Source: a virus
Lineage: Duplodnaviria; Heunggongvirae; Uroviricota; Caudoviricetes
Length of the DNA stretch: 64,000 bases
IMG/VR virus record: IMGVR_UViG_3300046522_000750
Strand: one strand, 5' to 3'
The position numbers and the translations under genes are program-made. The notes beneath the pieces are model-generated. The model was not told the origin of the DNA. It did no database searches and saw only the letters and a program-made list of their open reading frames with translations. This document shows positions 5,836-61,007 of this stretch, in pieces; position 1 is the first letter of the stretch; each line of letters starts with the position of its first letter.

Positions 5836-5854
5836 AGTATATCAGGCGAATACC
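5836..5854. promoter_or_regulatory. Operator A (RGTAT-N9-ATACY)
   Basis: AGTATatcaggcgaATACC. Confidence 0.7.
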
Positions 5855-5995
5855 AGAATAGCCAGCGCCTTGGGAAAATCCATTGATTTATATGAATAAA
5901 TTGTCGATGAATGGCATCTTTATTTTGTTGACAATTGTCAGGCCATCCGTAAAATTCGCGGCCTTTCCGAACAAAAATCAGGGTTTATCGTTACC

Positions 5996-6208
5996 ATGTG
6001 CGTTGAATTCAAAGAACTCGTTACCGCTTCCCGTCTGTCGCAGTCCAAAGTAGCGGACTTCCTGTGCACCAAGTCGATCCAGATGGTGAGTGAGCGTGAC
6101 ATCCGCGCCTGGCTGGCCGTACCGGGCTCTAAAAACAGCCGTAACTGCCCGGCCTGGGTGCTGAAGGAAATGGCGGTGTTCGCCCCTGTTGTGGCACAAG
6201 CCGCCTGA
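5996..6208 (+). CDS. Small HTH-like DNA-binding protein
   Basis: LSQSKVADFL...VSERDIRAWLA; TTGACA-17-TAAAAT promoter at about 5928-5956. Confidence 0.65.
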   Translation: MCVEFKELVTASRLSQSKVADFLCTKSIQMVSERDIRAWLAVPGSKNSRNCPAWVLKEMAVFAPVVAQAA

Positions 6209-6236
6209 TCGACCTTCCCCGGCTAGCCTTTAAAGA

Positions 6237-6271
6237 GAAACCGCCAGTGCTGTTTAGCCTGGCGGTTTTTT
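6237..6271. terminator. Bidirectional terminator
   Basis: AAACCGCCAG...CTGGCGGTTTTTT. Confidence 0.7.
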
Positions 6272-6277
6272 CAATGC

Positions 6278-7093
6278 TTATTGGATGCTGATTGACCAGT
6301 CTGTGGTTTCGCATGGCAGGTGTTCAACCAAGCCTTCGTCACCAATCAGTTCCTCAATGTTTTCACGCAGCAGTTTGTGTACCACTGGCAGGCCAATGCC
6401 ATTGAGTCGATAGTCGATCTCCAGAGTCACCTTGACCTTCACCACCGTCGTATCCAGTACCTGAGTCGACAGCTTGTCATGCGCCGCCAGGGCCAGTTGG
6501 TGATAATCACTACCCGCCTCAGCCAGTTTGCGAACAAAGGCCAAGGCCTCATCGTCATTCGCAAAGCGCGGGTCTTCGTCGAATTTATCGATCATGAACT
6601 TGGCGTTGAAGCTCCCGCCAGAATGTTCACTCAGCAACCAGCCTTCACGCTGGGCCATTTCGTCGATAATGCCCATTTGATCGCCGGTCAGAGGCAAACG
6701 ACCTTGGCGAGTAGTGGCCGCTGGCACCGGATCAACCGATTGAAAGCTAATGGTATCGGCGTCTGCCCATTGCTGGAACCCTTCGGCATGCAACTCATCC
6801 AGGTCGTTCTGACTGAGGGTTACTTTTTGATCCTCGAAATCCTCAGGGGTGTTGTGGGCCAACAGGGCCAGCTTGTGGAGAACGCTGCCAGCCTTTGCGC
6901 ATTTTTCGATATGCTCAATTGCATCATCGTCGTTGGCAAATACGCCGGCCTCATCGTCACGCTGAATTCGGGCGACGGTCTCATCCTGGCCAATGTCAAA
7001 GAGAGCCCAGCCTTCCTTCATCGCCATGGCATTGATGTTGCTTTTTTGTTCCTGGGTGAGCAAAACGCCCTGCTGAATGCTGGAATTGGTCAT
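6278..7093 (-). CDS. Hypothetical protein with an internally duplicated domain
   Basis: AAGGAGG RBS; two copies of EGW-L...FANDD-A...AGS--H-LAL-AH. Confidence 0.8.
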   Translation of the reverse strand: MTNSSIQQGVLLTQEQKSNINAMAMKEGWALFDIGQDETVARIQRDDEAGVFANDDDAIEHIEKCAKAGSVLHKLALLAHNTPEDFEDQKVTLSQNDLDELHAEGFQQWADADTISFQSVDPVPAATTRQGRLPLTGDQMGIIDEMAQREGWLLSEHSGGSFNAKFMIDKFDEDPRFANDDEALAFVRKLAEAGSDYHQLALAAHDKLSTQVLDTTVVKVKVTLEIDYRLNGIGLPVVHKLLRENIEELIGDEGLVEHLPCETTDWSISIQ

Positions 7094-7113
7094 CGTGACC
7101 TCCTTGATTAACG

Positions 7114-7132
7114 GGTACTCCAAAACAATACC
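7114..7132. promoter_or_regulatory. Operator A (1 mismatch)
   Basis: GGTACtccaaaacaATACC. Confidence 0.6.
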
Positions 7133-7199
7133 CTAATGGCAATTTGTTGTAAACAGAACAATTTTACCCCTACTGAAATGAGATGGTTGCAGAGATGAT

Positions 7200-7667
7200 T
7201 TGACCTTGTTCATACTCGGTTCCACACCCAAACAGCAAAGGTTTTTCAGGATGAATGACGTGAAGTGGCAAGCGATCTGTGAGAACGCCGTGGAACAGGC
7301 CAAAGGCCTTTCGTTGGTATTTGCTGGCACTGACGCCGATGTGAGACATGCGCGGGGCACCTGCGAGCTGATAGGCGCTCACATTGAGCATGGCGAGTTG
7401 TTCGATGAGGAAGCCTTGCCGGTCTACATCATCAAGACTGCGAGCGGCGAAGTGCTGGATGTCTTCGAAGAGGAATTGCAGTGCGAAGACGCTGAAGGCC
7501 TGGCCAAGCTGATTGAAGGTGTTTCCATGACGTTTGGACTTGCCCGTCAGTTGGGCTGCCTTGGCCCTTCGGATTTGATGGAAACCGCCTCAGCCGAGGT
7601 CAAGGCGCGGTTCCTGGAGCTTCTGGTGAGTGACCGAGCCAGTAAGGTTGTTGCACTGGATCTTTGA
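7200..7667 (+). CDS. Hypothetical protein
   Basis: 155-aa ORF followed by a terminator (7672-7695). Confidence 0.7.
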   Translation: MTLFILGSTPKQQRFFRMNDVKWQAICENAVEQAKGLSLVFAGTDADVRHARGTCELIGAHIEHGELFDEEALPVYIIKTASGEVLDVFEEELQCEDAEGLAKLIEGVSMTFGLARQLGCLGPSDLMETASAEVKARFLELLVSDRASKVVALDL

Positions 7668-8505: not shown

Positions 8506-8582
<77 letters not shown>

Positions 8583-8595
8583 AGTTATGTCAATA

Positions 8596-8703
8596 TGGTG
8601 CAGAAAGGGGAGAGTTGAACTGCCCGACCTCTTACTAAATTCGCCAAGCTGGGGGAGTCAGGGCAAATTCAGACAAGCGCTCTAAACACTGAGCTATTTC
8701 CGC
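8596..8703 (-). ncRNA. tRNA-like RNA with a 30-nt expansion of the anticodon arm (possibly tRNA-Phe(GAA)-derived)
   Basis: Acceptor GCGGAAA/TTTCTGC-A-CCA, D stem GCTC/GAGC, T loop TTCAACT; a 37-nt hairpin replaces the 7-nt anticodon loop. Confidence 0.8.
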
Positions 8704-8719
8704 ATAAAACCTTTGAATC

Positions 8720-8793
<74 letters not shown>

Positions 8794-8798
8794 GAAAC

Positions 8799-8873
8799 TG
8801 GTATTGCTAACATACGTGAGCCACAGAAGTGGAATTGAACCCCTTCTCCGCCCCAACTGAGGCTCACGTATGC
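8799..8873 (-). ncRNA. Anticodon-less tRNA-mimic candidate
   Basis: 12-bp perfect stem CATACGTGAGCC/GGCTCACGTATG enclosing D-like TCAGTTGG and T-like GGTTCAATTCC; 3' tail ends in ACCA. Confidence 0.55.
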
Positions 8874-8904
8874 ACACTGCTTACGGACAGTGAATCGTTT
8901 TAAT

Positions 8905-8981
8905 TGGCGCTCCCGGCAGGACTCGAACCTGCGACCATCCGCTTAGAAGGCGGATGCTCTATCCAGCTGAGCTACGGAAAC
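8905..8981 (-). tRNA. tRNA-Arg(TCT)
   Basis: GTTTCCG...TCCGC-CTTCTAA-GCGGA...GTTCGAGTC...GGAGCGCCA, 77 nt. Confidence 0.95.
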
Positions 8982-10120: not shown

Positions 10121-10405
10121 CTACTGCGCCGAATTGAGCTTCTGAAAAGCCTTGTAGTATGCGTCAGCCTGGGCCTTGGCTTCTTCCATGGTTGCGCATG
10201 GTTCATCGCAAGTGTTCTTGCCAAGCCCGTACCAGTACCAACCGGTCTTTCGATCCCAAAACGCTTGGATAACAGCAACAGAGATAATGAGCTTATCGCC
10301 TTCGCGCAGCTGCATGCCTCGAGGCCCTTGACCCATTCCGGCCAAGCCTGTGGCCTTCGGCTGTTTGCGCCACCGTGCGGTGACTTTGGGTTTCTGTTCA
10401 GACAT
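10121..10405 (-). CDS. Hypothetical protein
   Basis: GAGGA RBS before MSEQK. Confidence 0.75.
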   Translation of the reverse strand: MSEQKPKVTARWRKQPKATGLAGMGQGPRGMQLREGDKLIISVAVIQAFWDRKTGWYWYGLGKNTCDEPCATMEEAKAQADAYYKAFQKLNSAQ

Positions 10406-10427: not shown

Positions 10428-10446
10428 GGTATGTTTGCAGTATACC
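10428..10446. promoter_or_regulatory. Operator A overlapping a minus-strand -10 (TATACT)
   Basis: GGTATgtttgcagtATACC. Confidence 0.8.
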
Positions 10447-10890: not shown

Positions 10891-10909
10891 AGTATAGCAT
10901 AAACATACT
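10891..10909. promoter_or_regulatory. Operator A
   Basis: AGTATagcataaacATACT downstream of TTGACA. Confidence 0.75.
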
Positions 10910-10998: not shown

Positions 10999-11505
10999 GT
11001 GCCCGCAGAAGTCACCACCGTCACATTGCTCAATGGCGAGATCAGCCACTGGAGCATCAGTCGCAACCTCGGGAGCCTATATCGCCCAGTCAATAAGCAG
11101 GCTGATGATCAGGAGGCAGTCAACTTACTACAGGGTGATCCAGAGCTTCAGGATCGCCTGATCTCTATGATTTGGCCGGAGGTCAACGATTTAGCCTCGA
11201 TAGCTCGTAAGGACGCAAGATTTGGAATTCTGTTTGAGCGCCGCTTCAATTGCGCCGAGGCAGCCTTGCAGACTGGCCATCACGTGGCGCCGCGAATGAG
11301 GGTTGAACAGCGGATTTTGGCAGATATTGCCAGCGAGCTTCGCCGCAACCCCAAGCTTGAAATGGTAGATCTTGCCATTGCCGATCCTGAACATGTCAAA
11401 AACTCCATGGTCGGCCTTTGGGCATTTGTCCCGGTCGACGTAATGCACGCCAATGACTGGGATTTTCACTTTCTGGATGATGTCATCGCCCTGCTGGTCG
11501 AATAA
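10999..11505 (+). CDS. Hypothetical protein, paralog of 46649 and 48243
   Basis: GGAGG RBS; VTLLNG...WSIS...VGLWAFVP. Confidence 0.8.
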   Translation: MPAEVTTVTLLNGEISHWSISRNLGSLYRPVNKQADDQEAVNLLQGDPELQDRLISMIWPEVNDLASIARKDARFGILFERRFNCAEAALQTGHHVAPRMRVEQRILADIASELRRNPKLEMVDLAIADPEHVKNSMVGLWAFVPVDVMHANDWDFHFLDDVIALLVE

Positions 11506-11596: not shown

Positions 11597-11615
11597 GGTA
11601 TACTCGTAGAATACC
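11597..11615. promoter_or_regulatory. Operator A over -10
   Basis: GGTATactcgtagaATACC. Confidence 0.8.
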
Positions 11616-11640: not shown

Positions 11641-11979
11641 ATGCTGATTGCCACCGACTACACGATCTTGCGAGGCGTTATCCCAGGCAAAGGCAATATC
11701 GCCCTTGAGCGTGAGCCCATTCGCCTTGGGACGCTGGTCAATGAGGCCCTGTTCGAGTCGAGCGGCCATGAGATTCTTCAATTTCGCACGGTCTTGCTTG
11801 AAGAGCGCATGCACGACTGGGACTGGTCTCACGGGCAGCTTCGTTATCACACAGGTAGCCGTGATGCCTGTGACGTCCTGCTGGTGTTTGCCGAGAAAGA
11901 AGTCCTGTTCTGCACCCAGTGCGGAGCGAAAAAAGATGACGCTACCCTTGATCCATGTGAGGCCTGCAAAAAGGTTTAG
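11641..11979 (+). CDS. Hypothetical protein, C-terminal zinc ribbon
   Basis: FCTQCG...CEAC; GGAG RBS. Confidence 0.75.
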   Translation: MLIATDYTILRGVIPGKGNIALEREPIRLGTLVNEALFESSGHEILQFRTVLLEERMHDWDWSHGQLRYHTGSRDACDVLLVFAEKEVLFCTQCGAKKDDATLDPCEACKKV

Positions 11980-12005: not shown

Positions 12006-12024
12006 GGTATATTTGTAGTATACT
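12006..12024. promoter_or_regulatory. Operator A
   Basis: GGTATatttgtagtATACT. Confidence 0.75.
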
Positions 12025-12057: not shown

Positions 12058-12558
12058 ATGTCAAAGACGACCTTTTTCCCGAACCTGCGCATTGCCAGAG
12101 ACCTGAAAATTTCCCTCAAGAAAGAAAAGGTCGAAGGTGGCTACTCCTGCAGCTACAAGTACAGCGTTCGTTTTGACGGTCGTCTTCTGGGCAACATCAG
12201 CCAAGACCTGCCGTCCACTGGCGTCCAAACCAGCATTTCCCTTGAAGACTGCCAAGTACTGGTGGATGCTCTGAAGGCAAAAGGCGCTTCGCCAGAAGCC
12301 ATGGCCGAGTTTCATTTCCTGCCCGCCGATGCCATGGTCTCTGGCCTGCTCAGCACCATCCTTGGCGAGGAAGAATCGCTGCAGAAAATGAAGCGTCGGG
12401 CAAAAACCAAGATTCTGTGGGTCACCCATGACGCCAAGCCCGGCGATTTCATGGAAATGAAGCATCTTTTTTCTGAATACGGAAAGCGGTCGATCATTGC
12501 CGCTTATCCCGAGAATACTATCGCCTTCTTCATTAACGATGATATTGCCGATCTTTGA
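12058..12558 (+). CDS. Hypothetical protein, paralog of 12627
   Basis: C-terminal IAFFINDDI versus IAYFVNEDI. Confidence 0.8.
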   Translation: MSKTTFFPNLRIARDLKISLKKEKVEGGYSCSYKYSVRFDGRLLGNISQDLPSTGVQTSISLEDCQVLVDALKAKGASPEAMAEFHFLPADAMVSGLLSTILGEEESLQKMKRRAKTKILWVTHDAKPGDFMEMKHLFSEYGKRSIIAAYPENTIAFFINDDIADL

Positions 12559-13795: not shown

Positions 13796-13814
13796 GGTAT
13801 GCTGCCGGAATACC
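13796..13814. promoter_or_regulatory. Operator A over -10
   Basis: GGTATgctgccggaATACC. Confidence 0.75.
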
Positions 13815-13838: not shown

Positions 13839-14264
13839 ATGAGCGCATTTACCCAGCGAGTTCCGTTAACCGGTGAGCCGGTTGAGTTCGAGACAGTTCA
13901 CCTCATGGGTGCCCCCCTGGACTGGGCGATGTCTGTTGCCTTGAAAGTGCCTGTCACGGTTTCTGTGAGTGGTCAGTGCTGGCTGGCTGAGAAGCCCAAG
14001 CAAATGTACTCCCCTCACTCGAGATTTCGCCAAGGCGCCGAATTGCTAGACCGCTTTAACGTGCAGTTGACCACGGGTGCAACCACTGGCGGTCGTGTGG
14101 CACAGATCGATGACTTCTTCTGCTGCGGCCCCGACATGCTGATCGCGACTTGTCGCGTCATTGTCATGAAGCTGCTCGGCCCCAAGGTGATGATCCCCTA
14201 TGATCTAGCCCAGGCTTTCCTGATCCGCGAGCTTGAACGCACTGTCGTCAGCGAGGTGGCTTGA
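13839..14264 (+). CDS. DUF2591/NinX-like phage protein
   Basis: L-G--LDWA...YSP...G-ELL...GP--LIA-CR-IV...LG--V-IP pattern. Confidence 0.65.
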   Translation: MSAFTQRVPLTGEPVEFETVHLMGAPLDWAMSVALKVPVTVSVSGQCWLAEKPKQMYSPHSRFRQGAELLDRFNVQLTTGATTGGRVAQIDDFFCCGPDMLIATCRVIVMKLLGPKVMIPYDLAQAFLIRELERTVVSEVA

Positions 14265-14747: not shown

Positions 14748-14766
14748 GGTATACTGCAAATATACC
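14748..14766. promoter_or_regulatory. Operator A over -10
   Basis: GGTATactgcaaatATACC; TTGCAA -35 upstream. Confidence 0.8.
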
Positions 14767-14832: not shown

Positions 14833-14967
14833 ATGATGCGCTTTCTCTTCATTACCCAGACCTGCGGCACCAAGATGATCATGGCCGATGACATCAACCA
14901 TGCTTGGGACAAATTTGAAACCTGCGGCTTTCTGCGCAGTGAATGCCTGACCGTTTCCGAGGATTGA
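14833..14967 (+). CDS. Small hypothetical protein
   Basis: 44 aa between the promoter and the next gene. Confidence 0.5.
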   Translation: MMRFLFITQTCGTKMIMADDINHAWDKFETCGFLRSECLTVSED

Positions 14968-14970
14968 TCG

Positions 14971-15384
14971 ATGAACATCTTGAAACGCGTTGTCGCTGCC
15001 GCAGCCTGCACAGGATTCTTTGCCTACGGTGCCTTGCTGTGCACCATCGCTTACAGCGGGTACAGCATGTGGATGCTGCTGTTGGGTATGGCGGCACTTG
15101 CAGCCTTCTGTTTGTCGCTGTTGATTGGCCCATTGTTGCGCGACTTGACGGCCAGCATCAGGCATAAGCTGTTCCACCTCGTTGCCGTACAACGCGTTCG
15201 CCTTAAGATCATCGGCAACATCGTGACCTTTCTGCTGCTTTTCGGAGCGGCCTATGGCTTTATCTGGTTCGGCTCCGAGTACGCCGGTGCGATTGAATCG
15301 TGGATTTCGACGGCAAGCATTGCGGTCGGCACGCTCTTCGCTGTGACTGCCTTCCTGCATCAGCCATGGAACGTCAAAGCATGA
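14971..15384 (+). CDS. Hypothetical membrane protein (4 TM)
   Basis: Hydrophobic; GAGGA RBS. Confidence 0.75.
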   Translation: MNILKRVVAAAACTGFFAYGALLCTIAYSGYSMWMLLLGMAALAAFCLSLLIGPLLRDLTASIRHKLFHLVAVQRVRLKIIGNIVTFLLLFGAAYGFIWFGSEYAGAIESWISTASIAVGTLFAVTAFLHQPWNVKA

Positions 15385-17127: not shown

Positions 17128-17146
17128 AGTACACTACGAGCATACC
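17128..17146. promoter_or_regulatory. Operator A (1 mismatch)
   Basis: AGTACactacgagcATACC. Confidence 0.7.
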
Positions 17147-17167: not shown

Positions 17168-17713
17168 GTGTCCAGTGAATTGACCCCGCTCAACCCCTGT
17201 CCGGCAGCGACCAAGCGCGTCACCGACGCTTTTGAGATCCCGACTTGCTGCCGGTACTGCCAGGGCAAGGTCAGCGTTGTACATCACCGCGACATCTACT
17301 TCGGCCAAGTCTTCAACGACTGGCCCTGGGCCTACAAGTGCGACTCTTGCACCGCCCGTATCGGCATGCACCCAAAGACCAACCTGCCCCTTGGCAACCT
17401 CGCAGATGACAAGCTGCGCAAGGTGCGCAATGTCTGCAAGCCCGCGTTCGAGCAAATCTGGAAATCCGGCCTGATGGATCGCAATGGCGCCTATCGCTGG
17501 CTGTCCAAAGAGCTTGGCAAGCCGATAGAACTTTGCCACTTCGGCCTGTTCGAAGTTGATGACTGCCTTAAGGCCAAGGCCGCGAGCGAGAAGCTCATGG
17601 CCAACAAGCCCAGCGCCATGGGCATGGCCTTCAGCAAGGCAAGGAAAAAGGCCCAACTGCCCGAGTACATCCCGATGCCAGCCAGCGGCCCACAGATGGA
17701 TTTGCTACTGTGA
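17168..17713 (+). CDS. DUF3268-family zinc-finger protein
   Basis: CRYC...CDSC-A-IGMHP-T--PLG-LAD--LR...R--AY-WL...CHFG-F. Confidence 0.8.
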   Translation: MSSELTPLNPCPAATKRVTDAFEIPTCCRYCQGKVSVVHHRDIYFGQVFNDWPWAYKCDSCTARIGMHPKTNLPLGNLADDKLRKVRNVCKPAFEQIWKSGLMDRNGAYRWLSKELGKPIELCHFGLFEVDDCLKAKAASEKLMANKPSAMGMAFSKARKKAQLPEYIPMPASGPQMDLLL

Positions 17714-18223: not shown

Positions 18224-18288
18224 TTTGCACTCAAATGCAAAATAGTCTTTGACTACCTGTCAATTTATGGGTATTCTTTGCACATACC
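18224..18288 (+). promoter_or_regulatory. Promoter with upstream box C (18224-18241) and operator A (18270-18288)
   Basis: TTTGCActcaaaTGCAAA ... TTGACT ... GGTATtctttgcacATACC. Confidence 0.8.
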
Positions 18289-18362: not shown

Positions 18363-18545
18363 ATGAGCAAAGACACTGCTGACACCGGACTGCCGGAAGG
18401 CTTCTTCTCCAATCCGGAGATTATCCTGGTTTCCGATGAGGCGTTCGACAAGATCACTGAGATCATCGAAAGCAACGATGGCCCAAACCCTAAGCTGGTC
18501 GCGCTGATGCAGCGTCCTAAGCGCTGGGTTGATACAAAGGCCTAA
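18363..18545 (+). CDS. DUF1778 (TacA-like antitoxin) C-terminal-like small protein
   Basis: IILVSDEAFDKI-E-IE----PNPKLVALM---KRW. Confidence 0.6.
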   Translation: MSKDTADTGLPEGFFSNPEIILVSDEAFDKITEIIESNDGPNPKLVALMQRPKRWVDTKA

Positions 18546-19671: not shown

Positions 19672-19736
19672 TTTGCGGTAAATTGACAAAATGCGCTACA
19701 AATCACCACCTTGCGATTGTATACTGCCAGCATACT
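19672..19736 (+). promoter_or_regulatory. Promoter with degenerate box C and operator A (19718-19736, 1 mismatch)
   Basis: TTTGCGgtaaatTGACAA ... TGTATactgccagcATACT. Confidence 0.65.
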
Positions 19737-19752: not shown

Positions 19753-20388
19753 ATGTTTTTTGACGAAGGTTGTTGCGGATATCTCGAAATCCCTGATCCG
19801 GTACAGACCGCGCCTGTGGTGAAGAGGATTCGCACCCACTACGACAACCTGAAGGTGTCCAGGACGGCCACGTTCGTTGAGATTCGTGCTTCTTATCGGC
19901 GCCTTCGCAGCTTGTACCACCCAGATCGAAACAGTACTGCAAAGGCTAAAACCGCGATCATTTGCATAAATGATGCCTATGAGATCTTGTCGGATGCCAC
20001 CGAGCGCGCCAAGTATGATGCCTTTATTGTCGCGGAAGAGCGCAAGCTTAATCCTCCGCGTCCCCAACAACAGCACTCAGCCAACGCAAACCCTGCGAAA
20101 GCCAAGCACACCCAGTACGCTCATGATCCGGCTAACTGGAACCCGGAACATGCCGCTGATTTCAGGAAATTCGTGCAAGAGAAGCGCGTGGAATTCGGCG
20201 AAGTTTTCGGTGAACTGTCGACGGATTGGCTCTACATGTGTTTTCTTGAAGATCTTAGGATGAAAACTCATTCTGAGCGCCTTGAGGAAAAGGCCAGAAA
20301 GGCTAAGATCCTGGTAATTTGCTGCTTTGTATCCTTGATTCTGGGCATGATCTACATGGGCTTTCTCATCGCACAGAGCGGAAAATGA
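19753..20388 (+). CDS. J-domain (DnaJ-like) protein with a C-terminal TM helix
   Basis: THYDNLKV...EIRASYRRL--LYHPDRN...INDAYEILSD---RAKYD; start uncertain. Confidence 0.85.
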   Translation: MFFDEGCCGYLEIPDPVQTAPVVKRIRTHYDNLKVSRTATFVEIRASYRRLRSLYHPDRNSTAKAKTAIICINDAYEILSDATERAKYDAFIVAEERKLNPPRPQQQHSANANPAKAKHTQYAHDPANWNPEHAADFRKFVQEKRVEFGEVFGELSTDWLYMCFLEDLRMKTHSERLEEKARKAKILVICCFVSLILGMIYMGFLIAQSGK

Positions 20389-20821: not shown

Positions 20822-20840
20822 AGTATTCTAATCGCATACC
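20822..20840. promoter_or_regulatory. Operator A over -10
   Basis: AGTATtctaatcgcATACC; degenerate box C at 20777. Confidence 0.75.
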
Positions 20841-20857: not shown

Positions 20858-21103
20858 ATGCAGATCGCCAATCCTAACCTTCCAGGCTCGCTCTGCCACC
20901 AGAAATTCAGCTCCTATGTGGCCTGGTACAAAGACAAGTCCAGTGAGTACCTGGTCGAGCGGCATGCGAACCTGATTGAAGAGTCCAAGGATTACCTGCG
21001 TCTCTCTGGTCAGTCGATGGCCAACTCGCAGTTCGAAGCCGAGTGCGTCAGCCATATTCACGAAGCCCTGTTTGGCACACCCCTGCAAGGAGAGTCTGCA
21101 TGA
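20858..21103 (+). CDS. Hypothetical protein
   Basis: AAGGGG RBS. Confidence 0.7.
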   Translation: MQIANPNLPGSLCHQKFSSYVAWYKDKSSEYLVERHANLIEESKDYLRLSGQSMANSQFEAECVSHIHEALFGTPLQGESA

Positions 21104-23897: not shown

Positions 23898-23916
23898 AGT
23901 ATATTCTAGCTATACT
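23898..23916. promoter_or_regulatory. Operator A between divergent genes
   Basis: GAGTATattctagctATACTC. Confidence 0.8.
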
Positions 23917-23954: not shown

Positions 23955-24302
23955 ATGATTACCAGCAAAAAATCTGTAGCCAAAGGCGATACCCTTTACG
24001 TGCTTCATAATTATTCATCCAACAAAGGCCCATTTCCCTATGTAGTGGAATCCGTGGGCACTAAATGGATCAATTTTGAAGGCAGTCGCCGCGTTTCAAA
24101 AGACGACCTACGCGGCGATCACCTGCACGCCTATTTGTCTCTTGCTGACTACGAGAATGATTTGCGACTTGAGCGACTCAAGCGCCGAATCATCAGCAAG
24201 CTGCAAGAATACAAATCATCCACCTCGGTCACTCCGGATCAGCTGGATGCCATTGGAGAAATACTCGGTATCAATGGCGACCTGCCCGCCGAGAAGCAAT
24301 AA
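23955..24302 (+). CDS. Hypothetical protein
   Basis: AAGGA RBS. Confidence 0.75.
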   Translation: MITSKKSVAKGDTLYVLHNYSSNKGPFPYVVESVGTKWINFEGSRRVSKDDLRGDHLHAYLSLADYENDLRLERLKRRIISKLQEYKSSTSVTPDQLDAIGEILGINGDLPAEKQ

Positions 24303-24638: not shown

Positions 24639-24657
24639 AGTATACTGATTGCATACT
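24639..24657. promoter_or_regulatory. Operator A over -10
   Basis: AGTATactgattgcATACT. Confidence 0.8.
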
Positions 24658-24681: not shown

Positions 24682-25008
24682 ATGTCGAAGCCAGACGTTT
24701 GCGAAACCCCAAGAAAGGCCATCATCCGCACCATGGCCGAAGCTCGCAAGCTTGGTTATTTCGCAAAGTTTGGTTTCCGGGTGGACAAGAGTCAGGCAAG
24801 AGACGAACTCGAGGCGTGTGGCATTACCCAGTTCGTCTTTGCGGAAAAATACTATGCCGACTACTTTGGCAAAGATGAACTCATCAGGTTCTTTTGGGCC
24901 GGTGATGGACAAACGTTGGTCGACTTATTCCGCGCCCATGGCCTGAGGGCTGACTGGGAAGGTGAAACAAAGCACTGCATTTATGTGCACGCCAATTTCC
25001 CTGCTTAA
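24682..25008 (+). CDS. Hypothetical protein, tandem paralog of 25039
   Basis: Shared RKA-IR-MA-ARKLGYFAK...WAGDGQ-LVDL-RA-GL---WEGE. Confidence 0.85.
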   Translation: MSKPDVCETPRKAIIRTMAEARKLGYFAKFGFRVDKSQARDELEACGITQFVFAEKYYADYFGKDELIRFFWAGDGQTLVDLFRAHGLRADWEGETKHCIYVHANFPA

Positions 25009-26620: not shown

Positions 26621-26639
26621 GGTATACTTGCAGCATACC
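26621..26639. promoter_or_regulatory. Operator A over -10
   Basis: GGTATacttgcagcATACC; TTGCCT -35. Confidence 0.8.
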
Positions 26640-39780: not shown

Positions 39781-39821
39781 GTTCCCTCTCTTTCTATTTA
39801 TGGGTATACTAAGCGCATACC
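39759..39821 (+). promoter_or_regulatory. Promoter with box C (39759-39776) and operator A (39803-39821)
   Basis: TTTGCCtttaacTGCAAA ... GGGTATactaagcgcATACCC. Confidence 0.8.
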
Positions 39822-42625: not shown

Positions 42626-42688
42626 TTTGCAGTAAATTGCAAATTCCGCTTTCAGTCTGTCAATAAAAGAGTATACTTAGCGCATACC
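42626..42688 (+). promoter_or_regulatory. Promoter with box C (42626-42643) and operator A (42670-42688)
   Basis: TTTGCAgtaaatTGCAAA ... AGTATacttagcgcATACC. Confidence 0.85.
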
Positions 42689-42714: not shown

Positions 42715-43215
42715 ATGAATGCCGTTCTCAAAGCCCTGGATTCTGCTCACCACCTGTGTGCTGCCACCCAAGGTAACACCGCCTTGACCCTCGAGATTGG
42801 CGAGATCCTCGAGCGCCTAAAAAAGCTCTCTCCCGATCTAATTCATCTTGTTGAAGACGGCAAGTTTGTTGACCCTGAAGCTTACGGTCGCATTCTGCCG
42901 TTGTTCGCTGAGAGCACGAAGCAGGACATGACTCCTGTGTATGTCGTTGTCGAGAAGCTAGTAGATCAATCCAAACTGCATGAGTACGACACCGAAATTG
43001 AAGGCCACTACGAAATTCTGGTGCCCTCTTTCCTGAATGACGAACTGCAGGCCGCGTGCGCACTGGATCTGTTCCATGGTTCGGTGGCCATCAAGGTGCT
43101 GGACTGCTTCAGCATCGTGGTTTCGAAGCCGCTGGAATCTCCTGAAACCTATGAAAACGGCACCCTAGAGCGCCTTGGTGACTTCGTAGGCATCACCGAA
43201 CGCACCTCGTTCTGA
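42715..43215 (+). CDS. Hypothetical protein
   Basis: AAGGA RBS. Confidence 0.75.
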   Translation: MNAVLKALDSAHHLCAATQGNTALTLEIGEILERLKKLSPDLIHLVEDGKFVDPEAYGRILPLFAESTKQDMTPVYVVVEKLVDQSKLHEYDTEIEGHYEILVPSFLNDELQAACALDLFHGSVAIKVLDCFSIVVSKPLESPETYENGTLERLGDFVGITERTSF

Positions 43216-44641: not shown

Positions 44642-44660
44642 AGTATACTGAACATATACC
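44642..44660. promoter_or_regulatory. Operator A over -10
   Basis: AGTATactgaacatATACC. Confidence 0.8.
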
Positions 44661-44685: not shown

Positions 44686-44964
44686 ATGATGACCGTATTC
44701 GCGACTTTTTACCCTCAAGCTTGGGTCAACGACCAGTTGGTCGACGTTACTCCTGAAGGCGCTACCTTGTTCGATGTGACCCCCGAAGTCGAGTCGATGG
44801 GACAGGAAAATGCCCTGGCGATCAAGGACAACTCCAACGCTTCCGACGTGTTCCAGTACTCGGCCCATGCGCCTCATTGGATCAAGCACTGGCAAGGCCC
44901 GTTTCACATCAAAGTCAGCGATTCGATCCAAGAGCATTACGGGCAGCAGAAACTCTGCGCTTGA
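44686..44964 (+). CDS. Hypothetical protein
   Basis: A-F-PQAWVND...FDVT...WIK-W-GPF; AGGA RBS. Confidence 0.75.
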   Translation: MMTVFATFYPQAWVNDQLVDVTPEGATLFDVTPEVESMGQENALAIKDNSNASDVFQYSAHAPHWIKHWQGPFHIKVSDSIQEHYGQQKLCA

Positions 44965-45080
44965 CTCTTTTGGTCTGATCAACTAAATAGCCAGACCTTT
45001 TTCGTGCTGGATGAATGATCGTCTAGCCAACACCAAATCAAAGCCAACGACAGGCCTAATTGCTTAGAAGGATTCTCACC

Positions 45081-45584
45081 GTGAATACCCCAAATTCCAG
45101 TTCGATCATCGGCTCAGTTCTTCCGCGCAAACAAGCCATCTACAGCTCCCGAACGGCGGACAAATTTGTTGTTCGTTTTCTGGAAGGCATGCGTACCGCC
45201 ATTGCTCAAATTGCACGCAAAAACCATCGCAGCATGAACAGCGAGGTCATTAGCTGCCTCGATCTTCACATGCGCCTGGATGCCCTGGGTCTGTCTCAGT
45301 ATGTTGAACAGCTTGCAGAAGGCCAGATCGTTCCAGAAGGTGTCAACATTGACCCTGCTGCCCTTGCTGCAGCCCGTGAAGCCAATGGCGGCAACGTAGC
45401 TACCCTGGCACAATTTCGCGCTGGTGATCCTGTCATGTACAGCGGAACCCCGTGGATCATCGCCAAGCTGACCGTACGCAGTGGCAACGTCTACGCCAAG
45501 ATCGAACGCGAAGACCCGTCAGATGCCAGCAAGACCGACGAAACAGAAGTGCGTTACAGCGCGCTGAAGCCTTTCATGGTCTAA
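45081..45584 (+). CDS. Arc/ribbon-helix-helix regulator, AmrZ(AlgZ)-like, with an extra C-terminal domain
   Basis: [32 protein letters not shown] closely matches the AmrZ DNA-binding domain as I recall it. Confidence 0.85.
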
Positions 45585-45637
45585 GCCTTAGACTAAGCCT
45601 GGCTCCCAGCCCTTGGGAGCCTTACAGGACGTTACCG

Positions 45638-46195
45638 ATGAATGACTTGCTCATCACAGGCGCGGCGCTGACCGCCGATACCCTTACCGAATTCAAGACC
45701 CGCCTTGAACATGATTGCACTGGAGCTGGTTACGCGGAGCATTGCACCGTCCAGCCGGTGTTTGTCGTCAAAAAACGCGAGTATATCTACGGCGTTGATC
45801 TGGATTACGCTGAAAAGCGTGCGATCTATTGCAATGACGAGTACTACCACAGCATTGCCGAATTCATGGAAGACTCAAGCGAGTCATTCAAGCAGAGTCT
45901 GGATACCTTGGTGCAAAAAGGTCTTGAGATGAATTTCTCTGACCTGGACGAGGACGTTCAGTTTTCTACGCTGGCCCTAAACGAACACATTCAAGTTTTC
46001 GGCTACATCGAACGCTGGGACTACCTCAATGTTCATTTCACCCAGTCGGCTGCTGATGAATTCATTCAGCGCAGTGCTCACAACTACCCTGACGGTCTGA
46101 AGGTGTGCCAGGAAAGTCAGCAATACTGCCCTGAGTTCAATACCATTCACAATGCCATCCTGACTGGCAAGCTGGTTCTGAAGGAGCAATCATGA
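45638..46195 (+). CDS. Hypothetical phage-like protein (Ead/Ea22-associated type)
   Basis: HCT--P-F-V-K---IYG-D-DY...W-Y-N-HFT--AA--FI. Confidence 0.7.
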   Translation: MNDLLITGAALTADTLTEFKTRLEHDCTGAGYAEHCTVQPVFVVKKREYIYGVDLDYAEKRAIYCNDEYYHSIAEFMEDSSESFKQSLDTLVQKGLEMNFSDLDEDVQFSTLALNEHIQVFGYIERWDYLNVHFTQSAADEFIQRSAHNYPDGLKVCQESQQYCPEFNTIHNAILTGKLVLKEQS

Positions 46196-46458
46196 GCGGC
46201 GGACACTTTGACCATGTTCACAGCCGGGTTCGGGCATTTGCTGAAGACCTGGAGCGCGAGATTGCCAACAATGCTGTGCCAAATGACGCGGGCGACGTAT
46301 ACAATTTCTCCCCGCCAGTGATGGTCGCGCTGGCCTCCATTCGAGCACAGGCTGAAAAGATAGCCATCCTGATGAAGGCGGCTGATTATCTATACAGCGG
46401 CGAAATTCTAGAGGAATCATTCCTTGAAATCGTCCTTGAGGCCGAAAAGACCCTCTAA
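46192..46458 (+). CDS. Hypothetical protein
   Basis: AAGGAG RBS; MSGGHFD...DYLYSG. Confidence 0.75.
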   Translation: MSGGHFDHVHSRVRAFAEDLEREIANNAVPNDAGDVYNFSPPVMVALASIRAQAEKIAILMKAADYLYSGEILEESFLEIVLEAEKTL

Positions 46459-46553: not shown

Positions 46554-46617
46554 TTTGCACTTTCATGCAAATTTAACTTATTGACATATTGCCAGGTCAG
46601 TTTAACTGACCTATGAT
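46554..46617 (+). promoter_or_regulatory. Class B promoter 1: box C + TTGCCA-[operator B]-TATGAT
   Basis: AGGTCAGTTTAACTGACCT at 46594-46612. Confidence 0.85.
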
Positions 46618-47202: not shown

Positions 47203-47266
47203 TTTGCGGTTTACTGCAAATAATCATTATTCGAGTATTGTCAGGTCAGTTAAACTGACCTACAAT
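47203..47266 (+). promoter_or_regulatory. Class B promoter 2: box C + TTGTCA-[operator B]-TACAAT
   Basis: AGGTCAGTTAAACTGACCT at 47243-47261. Confidence 0.85.
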
Positions 47267-48789: not shown

Positions 48790-48853
48790 TTTGCATTTTT
48801 CTGCAAATTTTATTTACTGATATATTGCCAGGTCAGTTTAACTGACCTATAAT
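48790..48853 (+). promoter_or_regulatory. Class B promoter 3: box C + TTGCCA-[operator B]-TATAAT
   Basis: AGGTCAGTTTAACTGACCT at 48830-48848. Confidence 0.85.
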
Positions 48854-49889: not shown

Positions 49890-49951
49890 TGTGCAATTTA
49901 CTGCAAAATGATTGTTTAGATATTGTCAGGTCAGTTTAACTGACCTATAAT
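49890..49951 (+). promoter_or_regulatory. Class B promoter 4: degenerate box C + TTGTCA-[operator B]-TATAAT
   Basis: AGGTCAGTTTAACTGACCT at 49928-49946. Confidence 0.85.
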
Positions 49952-51894: not shown

Positions 51895-52269
51895 TTAGGC
51901 AGCTTGAACCCAGCTTTCAACCACGTCGGCGCCGAACTGTTCTTTCCAGCCCTTCAGGGCTTTGTGGTTGCCACCCTTGGTTTCGATGACCTCGCCGTTG
52001 TGCGGGTTCTTGTAAACCTTGACGGTGCGAGCGCGGCGGGTTTTCTTGCCACCGGCAGCCTGGGTGCGAGCACCGGTAGCCAGTTCTGGGCACAGTTCCA
52101 GAGCCATTTCACGGCGGGAGATGCCACGGGCATCGCATTGTTCAGTGATCGACTTGAATACTTCCATGTGCGCTTGAACTTGTGGCTGCAGCTCTTGGGC
52201 GCGAGCGGTCAGCTCAGCGATGGAAGCTTCCAGTTGACGCAGTTCGTGTACTTTAGAAGTGGTGTTCAT
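51895..52269 (-). CDS. mvaT: MvaT/MvaU-family H-NS-like nucleoid protein
   Basis: RRARTVKVYKNPHNGEVIETKGGNHKALKGWKEQFGADVVESW is the MvaT DNA-binding domain. Confidence 0.92.
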   Translation of the reverse strand: MNTTSKVHELRQLEASIAELTARAQELQPQVQAHMEVFKSITEQCDARGISRREMALELCPELATGARTQAAGGKKTRRARTVKVYKNPHNGEVIETKGGNHKALKGWKEQFGADVVESWVQAA

Positions 52270-53129: not shown

Positions 53130-53429
53130 TTAAGCATGAGCCACTTGATCAATCCGATTCAAAAGCTCCATGGCCCAGACAGGCACATAAAACTTTGTCA
53201 TCCTGGAGATGCGGTCGTTTTCGTTGTGCAGCGTACCAAGACGGCTCGAGAACTGACTGAAATTCGCGCCGTGCATTTCGCACGCCACTTTCTTTTGAGT
53301 GCCGTTCACCAAATGCTCTCGCAAGGCCAGCTTGACTTTATCACCTTTGATCGAGGTGCCGGCCATGAGGAGGCAGAAGTGCTCCAGGGTAAACTCGCCT
53401 TTCTGATTGCTTTGGGTAGTCGTCATCAT
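53130..53429 (-). CDS. PapB/FocB-family transcriptional regulator
   Basis: G----EHF-LL---TSI--DKV-LALREHLVNG--KK-ACE-HG-N-SQFS--L--L; GAGGA RBS. Confidence 0.8.
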   Translation of the reverse strand: MMTTTQSNQKGEFTLEHFCLLMAGTSIKGDKVKLALREHLVNGTQKKVACEMHGANFSQFSSRLGTLHNENDRISRMTKFYVPVWAMELLNRIDQVAHA

Positions 53430-53550: not shown

Positions 53551-53569
53551 GGTATTCTGTCAATATACT
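53551..53569. promoter_or_regulatory. Operator A over the -35 of a TTGACA-17-TATAAT minus-strand promoter
   Basis: GGTATtctgtcaatATACT. Confidence 0.8.
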
Positions 53570-53935: not shown

Positions 53936-54325
53936 TTAGGCAGCAGCGGTGGTGTCGGCGGCAGCTTTTTCAGTGCCTTTCGAGCCCCACTTGGTGATTT
54001 CCTGAACCACGATGCCTTTGTTGACGAACTGCTTTTCCACGCCTTCGCGGGTCTTGCCAGTGCGTTTCTGGCCGGTTTTCAGCTTGCCTTCCAGTTCCAG
54101 AACGCGGCCCTTGTTCAGGCGCTCGGTCAGCTTGACAGCTTTACCCTTGGCAGTGAACACCGAGCAGTTGTGGAACTGGGTGTTTTCTTTCTGATTGCCG
54201 TCCTTGTCGGTGTAGCTGTCGGAGGTCAGCAGGGTGAAGTTGACCACGTCCTGGGTGTCGCTCACGGAGCGCAATTCACCAGCTTTTACAACCAGACCAG
54301 CCAAAAGAATCTTGTTCATGTTCAT
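53936..54325 (-). CDS. ssb: Single-stranded DNA-binding protein lacking the acidic C-terminal tip
   Basis: MNKILLAG...ELR...VVNFTL-TSDSYTDKDG--KENTQFHNCSVF...L-KG----LEGKL-T. Confidence 0.85.
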   Translation of the reverse strand: MNMNKILLAGLVVKAGELRSVSDTQDVVNFTLLTSDSYTDKDGNQKENTQFHNCSVFTAKGKAVKLTERLNKGRVLELEGKLKTGQKRTGKTREGVEKQFVNKGIVVQEITKWGSKGTEKAAADTTAAA

Positions 54326-54411
54326 GTTCCTCGCGTTGGATTTGTGTGCCGCTGATTGGTTTTCATCAGCTAACGGTTAAGAGTATACGTTTGAGATACT
54401 CGTTCTGTCAA
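54326..54411 (-). repeat. Duplicated ssb promoter/leader, copy 1, with operator A (54382-54400)
   Basis: Near-identical to 55427-55490; TTGACA-18-TATACT. Confidence 0.85.
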
Positions 54412-54923: not shown

Positions 54924-55421
54924 TTAGTGCGAAAATGGAATATCGTCGTCGAACGAATCGAAGTCCGGCGCCGGCTGCGGAGTGACGTGTGCTTGTTGCT
55001 GAACACCAGCGGCACCCGCTTGATCAGCACCAGCTTCACGTACCGGGGTGTCGTCGCCAGCGGTGGCAACAGTGGCGTTCTTGCTGCCGGTCAGTTGCAG
55101 GTCGAACTGGCTGCCGATTTCCAGCAGGGCACTGGCGTAGACCACGCCGTCTTTTTCGTTCTTCTCGGTGATTTCCGGGTAAACCAGCTTGCCGATGGCC
55201 AGTACTGGTTGACCTTTCGAGAAGAACTCGATGGATTTGTCGAACTGGCCGAACTTGCCCCACAGGGTGGCGTCGACGAATTCAGCAGGACGTGGGTTGC
55301 CGTCTTTGTCCTTGCCTTCGTTGCAGGCAATGGTCAGCGCCATGAATTGACGGTCGCCAGCGGCGTTGGTGTGAAGGGTTGCGGCTTTAGCCAGGTTGCC
55401 TGCAGCAATAAAACGGTTCAT
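54924..55421 (-). CDS. ssb: Single-stranded DNA-binding protein with an acidic tail
   Basis: MNRFIAAGNL...F-D-TLWGK...KG-PV---GKL; C-terminal DFDSFDDDIPF-SH. Confidence 0.88.
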   Translation of the reverse strand: MNRFIAAGNLAKAATLHTNAAGDRQFMALTIACNEGKDKDGNPRPAEFVDATLWGKFGQFDKSIEFFSKGQPVLAIGKLVYPEITEKNEKDGVVYASALLEIGSQFDLQLTGSKNATVATAGDDTPVREAGADQAGAAGVQQQAHVTPQPAPDFDSFDDDIPFSH

Positions 55422-55426
55422 GTTCG

Positions 55427-55512
55427 TGTTCCTCGCGTTGGATTTTGGTGCCGCTGATTGGTTTTCATCAGCTAACGGTTAAGAGTATACGGAGCGCATA
55501 CCCTACTGTCAA
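55427..55512 (-). repeat. Duplicated ssb promoter/leader, copy 2, with operator A (55484-55502)
   Basis: GTTCCTCGCGTTGGATTT..GTGCCGCTGATTGGTTTTCATCAGCTAACGGTTAAGAGTATACG. Confidence 0.85.
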
Positions 55513-58901: not shown

Positions 58902-58907
58902 TACTGC

Positions 58908-59399
58908 CTAAAAATTACATTGAGTTGTACTGGTTCTTGATACCTGAACAGCACCGTCTTGGCGGGTTTCAAGGTTCACGCAGTCACCAGGCACCAGGTC
59001 ATTATAGCTATGTTCGATTTGGAGGGTTTCACCTCGAGCAGTCTCGACCACCAATTCGGTCTTGGGATTGCCGGTCGTGAAGGCCTTGTTCAAGGCCGCC
59101 CCGATCAGTGCTCCGCCTGCACCACGTATCACTTTTGACTCAGTGGAATGACCGATGCCGGTGAGAACCCCTACTCCGCCGCCAATCGCAGCACCAGGGG
59201 CCCATGAGCCTTCGGTTGTTCCTCTGTGAATATCCACGACCCGCGCTGTTTGAATACGTGTGGGTGTTGTAAACCCGCTGTTGCCGACACATCCGGATAG
59301 CAGCAGTGACACCATCGCGCAGGAAGCGTATAAACGTCTCAAGTTGAACCCTCTGAAACCTTTGATCTCTAGTGTCACATTAAAGGTATTAATAGACAA
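58908..59399 (-). CDS. Glycine-zipper outer-membrane lipoprotein (SlyB-like); true start probably downstream
   Basis: Lipobox LLSGC; GAAIGGGVGVLTGIG...GAGGALIG. Confidence 0.75.
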   Translation of the reverse strand: MSINTFNVTLEIKGFRGFNLRRLYASCAMVSLLLSGCVGNSGFTTPTRIQTARVVDIHRGTTEGSWAPGAAIGGGVGVLTGIGHSTESKVIRGAGGALIGAALNKAFTTGNPKTELVVETARGETLQIEHSYNDLVPGDCVNLETRQDGAVQVSRTSTTQCNF

Positions 59400-59423
59400 A
59401 TTGTCAAGAGAAATAGTTGGTTT

Positions 59424-59981
59424 ATGAGAAAAATACTGCTAGGTCTGACGCTTTCCTTTTTATGCGGTTCCGTTATTGCCGGCCCCTCTTCTAATGATGA
59501 AGATTTCCAAAAAGCCTTGAAGCGTTACGCACAATCATCGGCGCGTGAACTGATGGCCAGTCTTATTGAACAGCATCAAAAAGGAACCTCCTGGAAGCTG
59601 ATCCTCAGCCAGAACCTGCCCAAGCTGATTGATGACCGCTGCGGCTACAAAGACAAAATCAATCTGCCCGATGATGGCTTCGAGCAGATGCGCAACTCAG
59701 TCATTAAAGTGGCCGGAGAGCGCTTTGATAAAGCGTTTTCCAATCAGCTGGCTCGTCCTGGTGCTCAGCTTGCCCTGGTGGAGGTCAAGCCCATCAAATA
59801 CGGCGACCTGGATCAGGCCATTGTCACCACTCGCGTCAATCCAGCCCGGCCAGGTGACATTCTGATCAGCCTGCTCTACCAGCTCGATGACGGTGGGCAC
59901 ATGTCCTTATGTGATGTTGGTACGGGCAACTCACCAGAATCCGGAATACTGGCGGTCATCGGAAAAGAGTTGGAACGTTAA
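59424..59981 (+). CDS. Exported protein, weakly MlaC/Ttg2D-like
   Basis: N-terminal signal peptide; A-V-TRV---PGDI-I--LY-L----L-DV pattern. Confidence 0.6.
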   Translation: MRKILLGLTLSFLCGSVIAGPSSNDEDFQKALKRYAQSSARELMASLIEQHQKGTSWKLILSQNLPKLIDDRCGYKDKINLPDDGFEQMRNSVIKVAGERFDKAFSNQLARPGAQLALVEVKPIKYGDLDQAIVTTRVNPARPGDILISLLYQLDDGGHMSLCDVGTGNSPESGILAVIGKELER

Positions 59982-60110
59982 TACATTAATTGACAATTGT
60001 TTAATTGCAGCTATTATAAAAATAAAGGTTAGTTTATAACCGATTGCGAACAACTTATGGGTCGATTAGCTTTAGTGCTGTCGTCCCTTTTTTTATACCT
60101 GGAGATACCC

Positions 60111-60893
60111 ATGGGCAACGTGATCATCATGGCGGTTCGGCACCAAGACCTCGACGCAGTCGCTGCTCTTGATTTCAATGCGATAGGTGGATCAGCGTGT
60201 CACCGCTCTGACGCCCTGCCTAAGTCGTTTGATGGCCAGCCACTGTGGATTCGTCCTAAGGACGTCCCCTATGAAATCTGTACGCCCAATGTTGTCTTCA
60301 CCCAGTATCATCACACTTCCGGCACATGCAGCTTCTACATCGATGACCAGATGCTGGTCAGTGCGAGCACTTTAGGATGGACAGCCAGGCTCAAGGACGC
60401 CGGGCCAGCCTTTGACTTCAACAGCAAGGTCACCGAGCTTCGTCGTTATCTGCGCGGGTACAAGACCAAGCTCCTCAAGAGCAAAGACTCTCGCGAGCTC
60501 CGTAAGCCCGGCAGCCACGTCAGCTTGTTCCGAATCTTCACCGACACCATGGATCGTGTTGAAAAGAACCCGTACGTGATGCAGGACGTTGCACAGTACT
60601 GCCGCAGTGGTGAAGCCAACCCGCGTACATTCGGTTCATTGAATGCCGGCATTGAGGCCATCGGCACCCTTGATGGTGAGCATGCTCATCTGTTTGTTTC
60701 AGCCGGATATGAAGGCAAGGCCTTCACGCTACCGCGCCACGAACTGGTGTTTTCTGATGAGGAGCGTGTGAGGATCCTTGCGCAACCGCTTGGTTATAAC
60801 AACGCGCAGTCCTTTGAGATGGCACTGCTGCGAGAGCTCGCAGCTGGCTTTGGCTATCAACTCGTCCCATCAGGGAGTGCCGTGAAAAAATAG
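60111..60893 (+). CDS. Hypothetical protein
   Basis: GGAG RBS. Confidence 0.8.
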   Translation: MGNVIIMAVRHQDLDAVAALDFNAIGGSACHRSDALPKSFDGQPLWIRPKDVPYEICTPNVVFTQYHHTSGTCSFYIDDQMLVSASTLGWTARLKDAGPAFDFNSKVTELRRYLRGYKTKLLKSKDSRELRKPGSHVSLFRIFTDTMDRVEKNPYVMQDVAQYCRSGEANPRTFGSLNAGIEAIGTLDGEHAHLFVSAGYEGKAFTLPRHELVFSDEERVRILAQPLGYNNAQSFEMALLRELAAGFGYQLVPSGSAVKK

Positions 60894-60900
60894 TCACCTT

Positions 60901-60932
60901 AAAAAAAGGGAGGCTTTCGGGCCTCCCTTTTT
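60901..60932 (+). terminator. Intrinsic terminator
   Basis: AAAAAGGGAGGC-TTTCGG-GCCTCCCTTTTT. Confidence 0.8.
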
Positions 60933-60988
60933 AATTCTGTTTTTCTGAATTTGTGGTTAACCGCATATTGGCTTATCAATTCAAAACG

Positions 60989-61007
60989 AGTATACTGCCA
61001 GAATACC
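60989..61007. promoter_or_regulatory. Operator A over -10
   Basis: AGTATactgccagaATACC. Confidence 0.8.

Follow-up and report, generated by a model that had tools for sequence, protein, structure and literature searches.

A 19-bp palindrome at 29 promoter-like sites is a probable repressor operator in a fragment of a pMPPla107-like Pseudomonas megaplasmid

The 64-kb stretch of DNA analyzed here (IMG/VR record IMGVR_UViG_3300046522_000750, 64,000 nucleotides; hereafter the window) carries 29 copies of a 19-bp palindrome, RGTAT-N9-ATACY, which we call O1 (search pattern RGTATNNNNNNNNNATACY) and which lies over promoters of small uncharacterised genes and of both ssb genes. O1 is probably an operator, and the repressor that binds it would be two-fold symmetric and carried on the megaplasmid itself. 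This reading is supported by the three registers in which O1 meets the promoter, by its family-wide conservation at ssb promoters and by a symmetric change of its half-sites between two plasmid subfamilies. The original prediction for this DNA had proposed that one dimeric repressor silences many operons together with both ssb genes; its shared symmetric operator on core promoters stands, and the single repressor reading it is retained here as the probable explanation. O1 would represent a known kind of plasmid control, in which strong promoters are placed under a global repressor, with a new motif and no new mechanism. What is notable is its density, the use of its arms as -10 hexamers and the symmetric half-site switch between subfamilies.

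A pattern search of the window returned 25 exact copies of O1, compared to a mean of 0.01 and a maximum of 1 in 100 dinucleotide-preserving shuffles. The search reproduced all 25 exact coordinates of the original prediction, whose analytic expectation of 0.25 matches is a fair upper bound. One-mismatch copies number eight, where about five are expected. The four that had been named beforehand (starting at 7114, 17128, 19718 and 35748) look real, because they are intergenic and lie 16–42 nt upstream of a gene start. All 29 copies (25 exact and 4 near) are intergenic according to our own gene calls, with a start codon 7–121 nt downstream on the appropriate strand, and O1 is present in 28 of the 71 intergenic gaps that face a gene start, giving a density of 29 sites in 55 kb. 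When oriented by the downstream gene the copies have the consensus ttaacg-GGTATACT-nnnaG(C/A)ATACC-gaa, and every one of the 15 TATACT hexamers of the window + strand falls within an O1 copy. A centre-to-centre distance of 11 bp would place the two half-site boxes on one face of the helix. One sequence is hence shared by many promoters of one plasmid, as in the global-repressor regulons of the KorA/ArdK type.

The position of O1 relative to the promoter was analyzed by searching for the best -35/-10 pair at each site, with a spacer of 16–18 bp. At 28 of the 29 sites the best pair takes part of the palindrome as a hexamer or the palindrome covers the -35, which bears out the earlier claim that the copies lie upstream of gene or operon starts and overlap a TATACT-like -10, the spacer or the -35; at the exception, the one-mismatch site 35748, the arrangement that uses the palindrome ranks second. 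The sites fall into three classes. In class A (~19 sites) the -10 is formed by positions 3–8 of the site, in the left arm, and mostly reads TATACT; the start codon follows 15–45 nt on and O1 spans about -14 to +5. In class B, which comprises 54382 and 55484 (both ssb), 10891, 35183 and 5836, the right arm serves as the -10, preceded at 17–18 bp by TTGACA or a close variant of it, so that O1 fills the spacer and the -10, spanning -25 to -7. Class C consists of the single site 53551, in which a perfect TTGACA lies within the palindrome and is followed 16 bp later by TATAAT, for a span of -41 to -23. An independent promoter scan of 35–45 kb gave seven promoter-like candidates, four of which are on O1. 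The core-promoter overlap that characterizes KorA/ArdK-type regulons is thus found in registers A, B and C, from which we infer repression. Three registers that always fall over the polymerase footprint are operator-like, as a pure promoter element would hold one register.

From its synteny with pMPPla107-type plasmids and with closer relatives, we take the window to be a fragment of a new subfamily of pMPPla107-like Pseudomonas megaplasmids (a family of ~1 Mb replicons) and a distant relative of pMPPla107 itself. Megaplasmids of this family carry ~1000 mostly uncharacterised genes and impose a large cost on new hosts; to our knowledge nothing has been published on their transcriptional control, and the family paper on pMPPla107 and pBASL58 makes no mention of the O1 motif. 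The window has no nucleotide match in the phage collection, and a nucleotide search of its 10–30 kb portion against plasmids gave a single 220-bp match, to pPL1. The NrdB protein encoded at the right end is ~74–84% identical to those of large Pseudomonas plasmids (about 77–78% amino-acid identity to pMPPla107 and pPL1). Four complete relatives, pMPPla107, pBASL58, pPL1 and an unnamed plasmid of strain FeN3W, are syntenic with window positions 1–10.8 kb and 51.9–64 kb, which contain an AAA protein, small genes, mvaT, the two ssb genes, a conserved 235-aa protein and nrdB. For the 10.9–51 kb block in between, which consists of small + strand genes, hardly any match was found in the regions compared from the complete relatives. 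Four closer relatives were found via a winged-helix protein described below: a 436-kb Pseudomonas putida contig (JAEHTE010000002.1) and three long metagenome contigs. All four are syntenic with the window, and in them nrdB leads on to Dot/Icm-type transfer genes, DotI/DotH being its neighbours; two of the four partly contain the small-gene block. Backbone synteny (nrdB, ssb-ssb-mvaT and Dot/Icm-type transfer genes) hence places the window in the pMPPla107 family. Its gene content has the look of the leading or establishment region of a conjugative element; no transfer origin was located in the window fragment.

The four complete relatives contain 9, 14, 6 and 5 exact O1 sites, that is 5–14 per ~1 Mb, versus 1–2 for a reversed-pattern control. 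In pMPPla107 the remaining sites are scattered over the plasmid, each 20–40 nt before a gene start. We compared the ssb promoters of five complete plasmids, seven metagenome contigs and four close-relative records and found O1 in every relative with that promoter in reach, often with a further copy before the mvaT region. The ssb promoters of the relatives keep TTGAC-N4/5-RGTAT-N9-ATACT within diverged flanking DNA and among neighbouring proteins that are ~30–50% identical. Because the ssb operators are common to the whole pMPPla107 family, the O1 regulon appears to be older than the window replicon. The half-sites themselves differ between subfamilies. When the two arms are pooled, the pMPPla107 subfamily favours G at position 7 (45 of 66 arms; RGTATAG), with A nearly always at position 6, whereas the window subfamily favours C at position 7 (66 of 86 arms; RGTAT[A/G/T]C) and varies at position 6. 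The position-7 change affects both arms, including the arm that is free of the -10 constraint, as one would expect of a two-fold symmetric reader of both arms whose specificity differs between subfamilies. The O1 copies at window 10428-10446 and pPL1 88501-88519 (L030) are near-identical (GGTATGTTTGCAGTATACC and GGTATGTTGCGAGTATACC, respectively) and both adjoin the gene for a conserved 49-aa acidic protein, though the other half-site types of the two replicons differ.

We also examined one host genome, that of P. fluorescens CFBP13716. Its chromosome (~7 Mb) contains six O1 matches, none with a GTATA arm, and the control gives five across the whole genome, whereas its megaplasmid (0.97 Mb) contains seven matches, six of the conserved type. 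In this single host, O1 is therefore restricted to the plasmid and the chromosome is at chance level, making O1 unlike the site of a host regulator; the original prediction had named a match to a known host regulator site as an outcome that would refute it.

In the model suggested by these data, the repressor would bind O1, one arm of which usually doubles as the -10 hexamer TATACT, and the bound protein would cover -14 to +5 (class A), -25 to -7 (class B) or -41 to -23 (class C) and so block RNA polymerase. The regulon would comprise ~29 transcription units of small uncharacterised genes and both ssb genes, which may fire together in a fresh recipient until the repressor accumulates. Binding and repression are proposed on the basis of the sites as such, the registers they take, how well they are conserved and, in one host, their confinement to the plasmid.

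We weighed four other explanations of O1. It could be a lineage-specific promoter consensus, composed of a -10 and a conserved start region, that is recognised by a sigma factor (host sigma-70 or one encoded by the plasmid) and does without a separate repressor. The left arm is indeed a good -10 (TATACT) at ~19 sites, with -35-like hexamers 16–18 bp upstream, and the confinement of the 15 + strand TATACT hexamers to O1 fits this explanation as well. However, the same 19-mer occurs in three registers relative to the -35, the arm that does not serve as a -10 is equally conserved, position 7 switches symmetrically on both arms between subfamilies and sigma-70 would not read the left arm at the ssb promoters, since it falls within the spacer; we thus regard a promoter consensus as very unlikely. 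That O1 is the site of a chromosomal Pseudomonas regulator borrowed by the plasmid is, in our view, highly improbable. Plasmids do recruit host factors, no repressor gene is pinned down on the plasmid and the window contains an AmrZ-like and an MvaT gene, yet the ~7 Mb CFBP13716 chromosome has only a control-level number of matches (6, none with GTATA arms), a shared host factor would not explain half-sites that differ between plasmid subfamilies and a full-text search for GTATAC operators revealed no matching host regulator.

Instead of being bound by a protein, the palindrome could also work as a nucleic-acid hairpin, serving as an antisense terminator or forming in the single strand that is transferred. 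Two sites are terminator-like on the opposite strand (palindrome, then a T-rich run) and the region resembles a conjugative leading region. The arms, however, are conserved in sequence with no co-variation, the stems are only 5–7 bp with few G-C pairs, O1 follows promoters and not gene ends, and the mRNA of class A units would lack the left arm because the inferred transcript start is inside O1, all of which makes a hairpin extremely unlikely. We give just as little credence to an activator or dual regulator that binds O1 and is required for firing. Many class A promoters have weak -35 hexamers and several have a second box, TTTGCA-N6-TGCAAA, ~45 bp upstream, as such a regulator might lead one to expect; but in any of the three registers bound protein would overlap the polymerase footprint, the spacers are 16–18 bp as opposed to the 19–20 bp of MerR-type activation and the ssb promoters are near-consensus and need no activator.

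With a repressor operator as the preferred reading, we asked which protein might bind it. Pfam identified four DNA binders, among the matches listed, in the 128 window proteins: an MvaT homologue, a PapB-like regulator, an AmrZ-like protein and an 83-aa stand-alone winged-helix protein. The winged-helix protein is the best candidate within the window. O1 is present at its own promoter, ending 15–19 nt before the start codon, in every orthologue compared (57–96% identity), an arrangement that would provide autoregulation, and its eight close homologues are all on relatives of the window subfamily; the protein is confined to the subfamily with the C-type half-site. Its AlphaFold2 (AF2) model is a plain winged helix with a predicted local distance difference test (pLDDT) score of 74 overall and 81–92 over the core, and a structure search with this model gave generic winged-helix matches only, with E values above 0.04. 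A library-wide profile search revealed a wider family of 60–80-aa stand-alone winged-helix proteins. We identify the winged-helix protein as the O1 repressor only tentatively. Another window protein is a quite unlikely source of the repressor, and there is about an even chance that it is encoded outside the visible DNA.

Several observations weigh against the proposed operator and its candidate reader. The O1 arms also fit a direct repeat (GNATACY at 11-bp spacing), leaving strict dyad symmetry unproven. The winged-helix protein has O1 at its own promoter but does not occur in the pMPPla107 subfamily, where the operator core is the same; the family profile found no member in pMPPla107-type loci or whole plasmids, which is consistent with the other half-site type of that subfamily. 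Another protein must then read the G-type sites there, or else the true repressor is either a conserved protein that was not recognised or one encoded outside the visible ~74 kb of the replicon (the window plus ~10 kb). Distant winged-helix homologues, seen in two contexts on short 1-kb contigs, have no upstream palindrome. None of the AmrZ-like, PapB-like and winged-helix proteins is conserved together with the motif in the four complete relatives, and the first genes behind O1 in pMPPla107, pBASL58 and pPL1 belong to no DNA-binding family. The most far-reaching form of the proposal would make the winged-helix protein the master repressor of at least 29 promoters of a ~40-kb establishment or anti-defence island beside the transfer genes; with two more operator types, described below, the protein would run a phage-like timed programme after conjugative entry, and its specificity would have switched symmetrically between subfamilies. 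We think it unlikely that all of this holds.

The other candidates fared less well. The PapB-like gene, whose -35 is covered by O1, is a weak alternative and is missing in three of the four complete relatives. The AmrZ-like protein (167 aa) has a ribbon-helix-helix domain that aligns to AmrZ (PDB 3QOQ, E 1e-13) and a C-terminal half that is unrelated. It is an unlikely reader of O1, because its DNA-reading strand is that of AmrZ, which binds A/T-rich sites containing GCC (PMC3946381). Small proteins conserved in the neighbourhood of ssb were also rejected as regulators: one is a lipoprotein, some are membrane peptides and a conserved 50-aa protein has no PDB relative.

Several known systems resemble the O1 regulon. 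KorA and KorB of IncP-1 plasmids (RK2/RP4) are global repressors with palindromic operators at many promoters, the KorA operator (GTTTAGCTAAAC) lying over the -10 and the KorB operator just upstream of the -35. Likewise, in the window O1 lies over the -10 with the TTTGCA-N6-TGCAAA box upstream of the -35, and a TrfA-like gene is present ~10 kb beyond the window start. The window differs in operator sequence, scale and gene content; no KorA/KorB homologue was seen in it, and no KorA-type family is among the Pfam matches listed for the 128 window proteins (best 25 of 49 weak families). The closest functional analogue is ArdK of the IncW plasmid R388. It represses four promoters in addition to its own, Pssb, and together with other R388 repressors gives rise to a transcriptional overshoot after transfer into a new cell (PMC3937220). 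The ArdK/ArdR analogy drawn in the original prediction is therefore apt. The ArdK regulon (KorA family, with related ArdK/ArdR in IncN pKM101) shares with the regulon proposed for O1 a plasmid repressor, negative feedback and maintenance or establishment promoters that include Pssb. It differs in comprising five promoters with direct repeats, which are bound by a non-symmetric dimer (PMC9723621), as opposed to ~29 promoters with a 19-bp inverted repeat of another sequence in the window; the burst after transfer is known for R388 and may also occur here.

CcdA, the ribbon-helix-helix antitoxin that binds the F ccd operator, recognises short GTATAC palindromes ~10–12 bp apart (PMC5389731), and the O1 half-sites are GTATAC-like boxes 11 bp apart. 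We treat this likeness as a lead and not a match, since CcdA controls one autoregulated operon with low specificity and the only ribbon-helix-helix protein of the window carries the AmrZ-type reading strand. The window yielded no CcdA-like protein, and CcdA was the only published case of GTATAC-type recognition recovered by full-text search. O1 is also distinct from the LexA/SOS box (CTGT-N8-ACAG), as its arms, RGTAT and ATACY, contain no CTG/CAG. Frpo promoters in the leading regions of F and ColIb drive early ssb and anti-defence expression after conjugative entry and are long imperfect hairpins active as single-stranded DNA. The window promoters, in contrast, are of the duplex type, with -35 and -10 on one strand at 16–18 bp and a palindrome of only 19 bp.

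O1 would point to the uncharacterised genes that share control with ssb and that therefore probably act early after transfer. It can be used as bait for the master repressor, and its G-type and C-type half-sites form a natural operator pair for studying how repressor specificity evolves. The regulon would also extend the global-repressor strategy to the scale of a megaplasmid. The positions of all sites and of the genes discussed are listed in Table 1.

Table 1 Positions of O1 sites, ssb genes and DNA-binding proteins in the window. Site rows are based on pattern match (exact unless marked one mismatch), gene calls and the best -35/-10 pair search.
Feature	Position	Strand	Context or basis
O1, class B (right-arm TATACT as -10)	5836-5854	-	upstream of gene 5430-5792
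O1, one mismatch	7114-7132	-	upstream of gene 6278-7093
O1, class A (left arm = -10)	10428-10446	-	upstream of 10121-10405; near-identical site in pPL1
O1, class B (TTGACA-N18-CATACT)	10891-10909	+	upstream of 10999-11505
O1 over -10/start	11597-11615	+	upstream of 11641-11979
O1	12006-12024	+	upstream of 12058-12558
O1, class A	13796-13814	+	upstream of 13839-14264
O1, class A	14748-14766	+	upstream of 14833-15384
O1, one mismatch, class A	17128-17146	+	upstream of 17168-17713
O1, class A	18270-18288	+	upstream of 18363-18545
O1, one mismatch, class A	19718-19736	+	upstream of 19753-20388
O1, class A	20822-20840	+	upstream of 20858-21103
O1, divergent gap	23898-23916	+	upstream of ProQ-C-like gene 23955-24302
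O1, class A	24639-24657	+	upstream of 24682-25008
O1, class A	26621-26639	+	upstream of 26656-27033
O1	28454-28472	+	upstream of 28514-28954
O1, class A	28998-29016	+	upstream of 29036-29473
O1, class A	32143-32161	+	upstream of 32210-32491
O1, class B (TTGAAA-N17-CATACT)	35183-35201	-	upstream of 34608-35156; also on independent promoter scan
O1-like, one mismatch	35748-35766	-	upstream of doubtful open reading frame 35271-35705
O1, class A	35830-35848	+	upstream of 35856-36227; also on independent promoter scan
O1, class A	36830-36848	+	upstream of 36864-37556; also on independent promoter scan
O1, class A	39803-39821	+	upstream of 39842-40423
O1, class A	42670-42688	+	upstream of 42715-43215; orthologous site in relative L029
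O1, class A	44642-44660	+	heads operon 44686-46458 with AmrZ-like gene; orthologous site in L029; also on independent promoter scan
O1, class C (TTGACA inside site, then N16-TATAAT)	53551-53569	-	upstream of PapB-like gene
O1, class B (TTGACA-N18-TATACT)	54382-54400	-	promoter of ssb gene 53936-54319
O1, class B (TTGACA-N17-TATACT)	55484-55502	-	promoter of ssb gene 54924-55421
O1, class A	60989-61007	+	16 nt before winged-helix gene; same position in all orthologues
ssb gene A, behind O1	53936-54319	-	
ssb gene B, behind O1	54924-55421	-	
MvaT homologue	51895-52269		Pfam
PapB-like regulator, O1 over its -35; weak alternative candidate	53130-53429	-	Pfam
AmrZ-like ribbon-helix-helix protein, second gene of O1 operon at 44642	45081-45584	+	Pfam
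83-aa stand-alone winged-helix protein, best in-window candidate for O1 repressor	61024-61275	+	Pfam helix-turn-helix and AF2 model

Two further palindromic elements occur in the window. A 19-bp element of the AGGTCAG type, AGGTCAGTT(T/A)AACTGACCT, is found at 46594-46612, 47243-47261, 48830-48848 and 49928-49946, where as a putative operator it fills the 17-bp spacer from TTG(C/T)CA to TA(T/C)(G/A)AT at four O1-free promoters; the AmrZ-like gene lies just upstream of these four promoters. Elsewhere the element was found only in the closest relative, L029 (2 copies), and it is absent from five complete relatives. The TTTGCA-N6-TGCAAA box has 22 window matches (with up to 2 mismatches) versus 5.1 expected, examples being those at 18224, 35785, 42626, 44515, 46554 and 48790. 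It begins 43–46 bp before O1 at six class A promoters and 38–40 bp before each of the four AGGTCAG-type elements, and it overlaps the left arm of O1 at five sites (TTTNCAGTATACTGCAAA). The box may be the site of a third regulator, for which the AmrZ-like protein could be proposed only as a guess.

In both ssb leaders (54320-54381 and 55422-55483, - strand), a short hairpin and a conserved CCAACGCGAGGAA stretch precede the start codon. The relatives also have a hairpin here, of a different sequence; the z-score of the window fold is only -1.5. In pMPPla107-type plasmids an O1 promoter lies ~250 nt upstream of mvaT and is followed after ~110–130 nt by a strong terminator-like hairpin with a T run (L001 35719-35960, L007 12832-13090 and L008 10492-10740). 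This unit is a candidate small RNA or leader under O1 control, and in the window its place is taken by the PapB-like gene. The winged-helix gene is followed, in one operon, by three tandem acidic paralogues (61272-62781, + strand; 166–170 aa), of which pMPPla107 has one homologue, beside an AbiEii-type gene.

ARAGORN and Rfam identified a cluster of three tRNAs (Arg-CCT, Gly-TCC and Arg-TCT) at 8506-8981 on the - strand, which are the only Rfam matches in the window. Finally, a contig from Logan SRR26076530 (L006) extends ~10 kb beyond window position 1 and contains a DUF2201 protein beside the AAA protein, a hipBA pair, a Mu gp6-like gene and, at the contig end, the TrfA-like gene.

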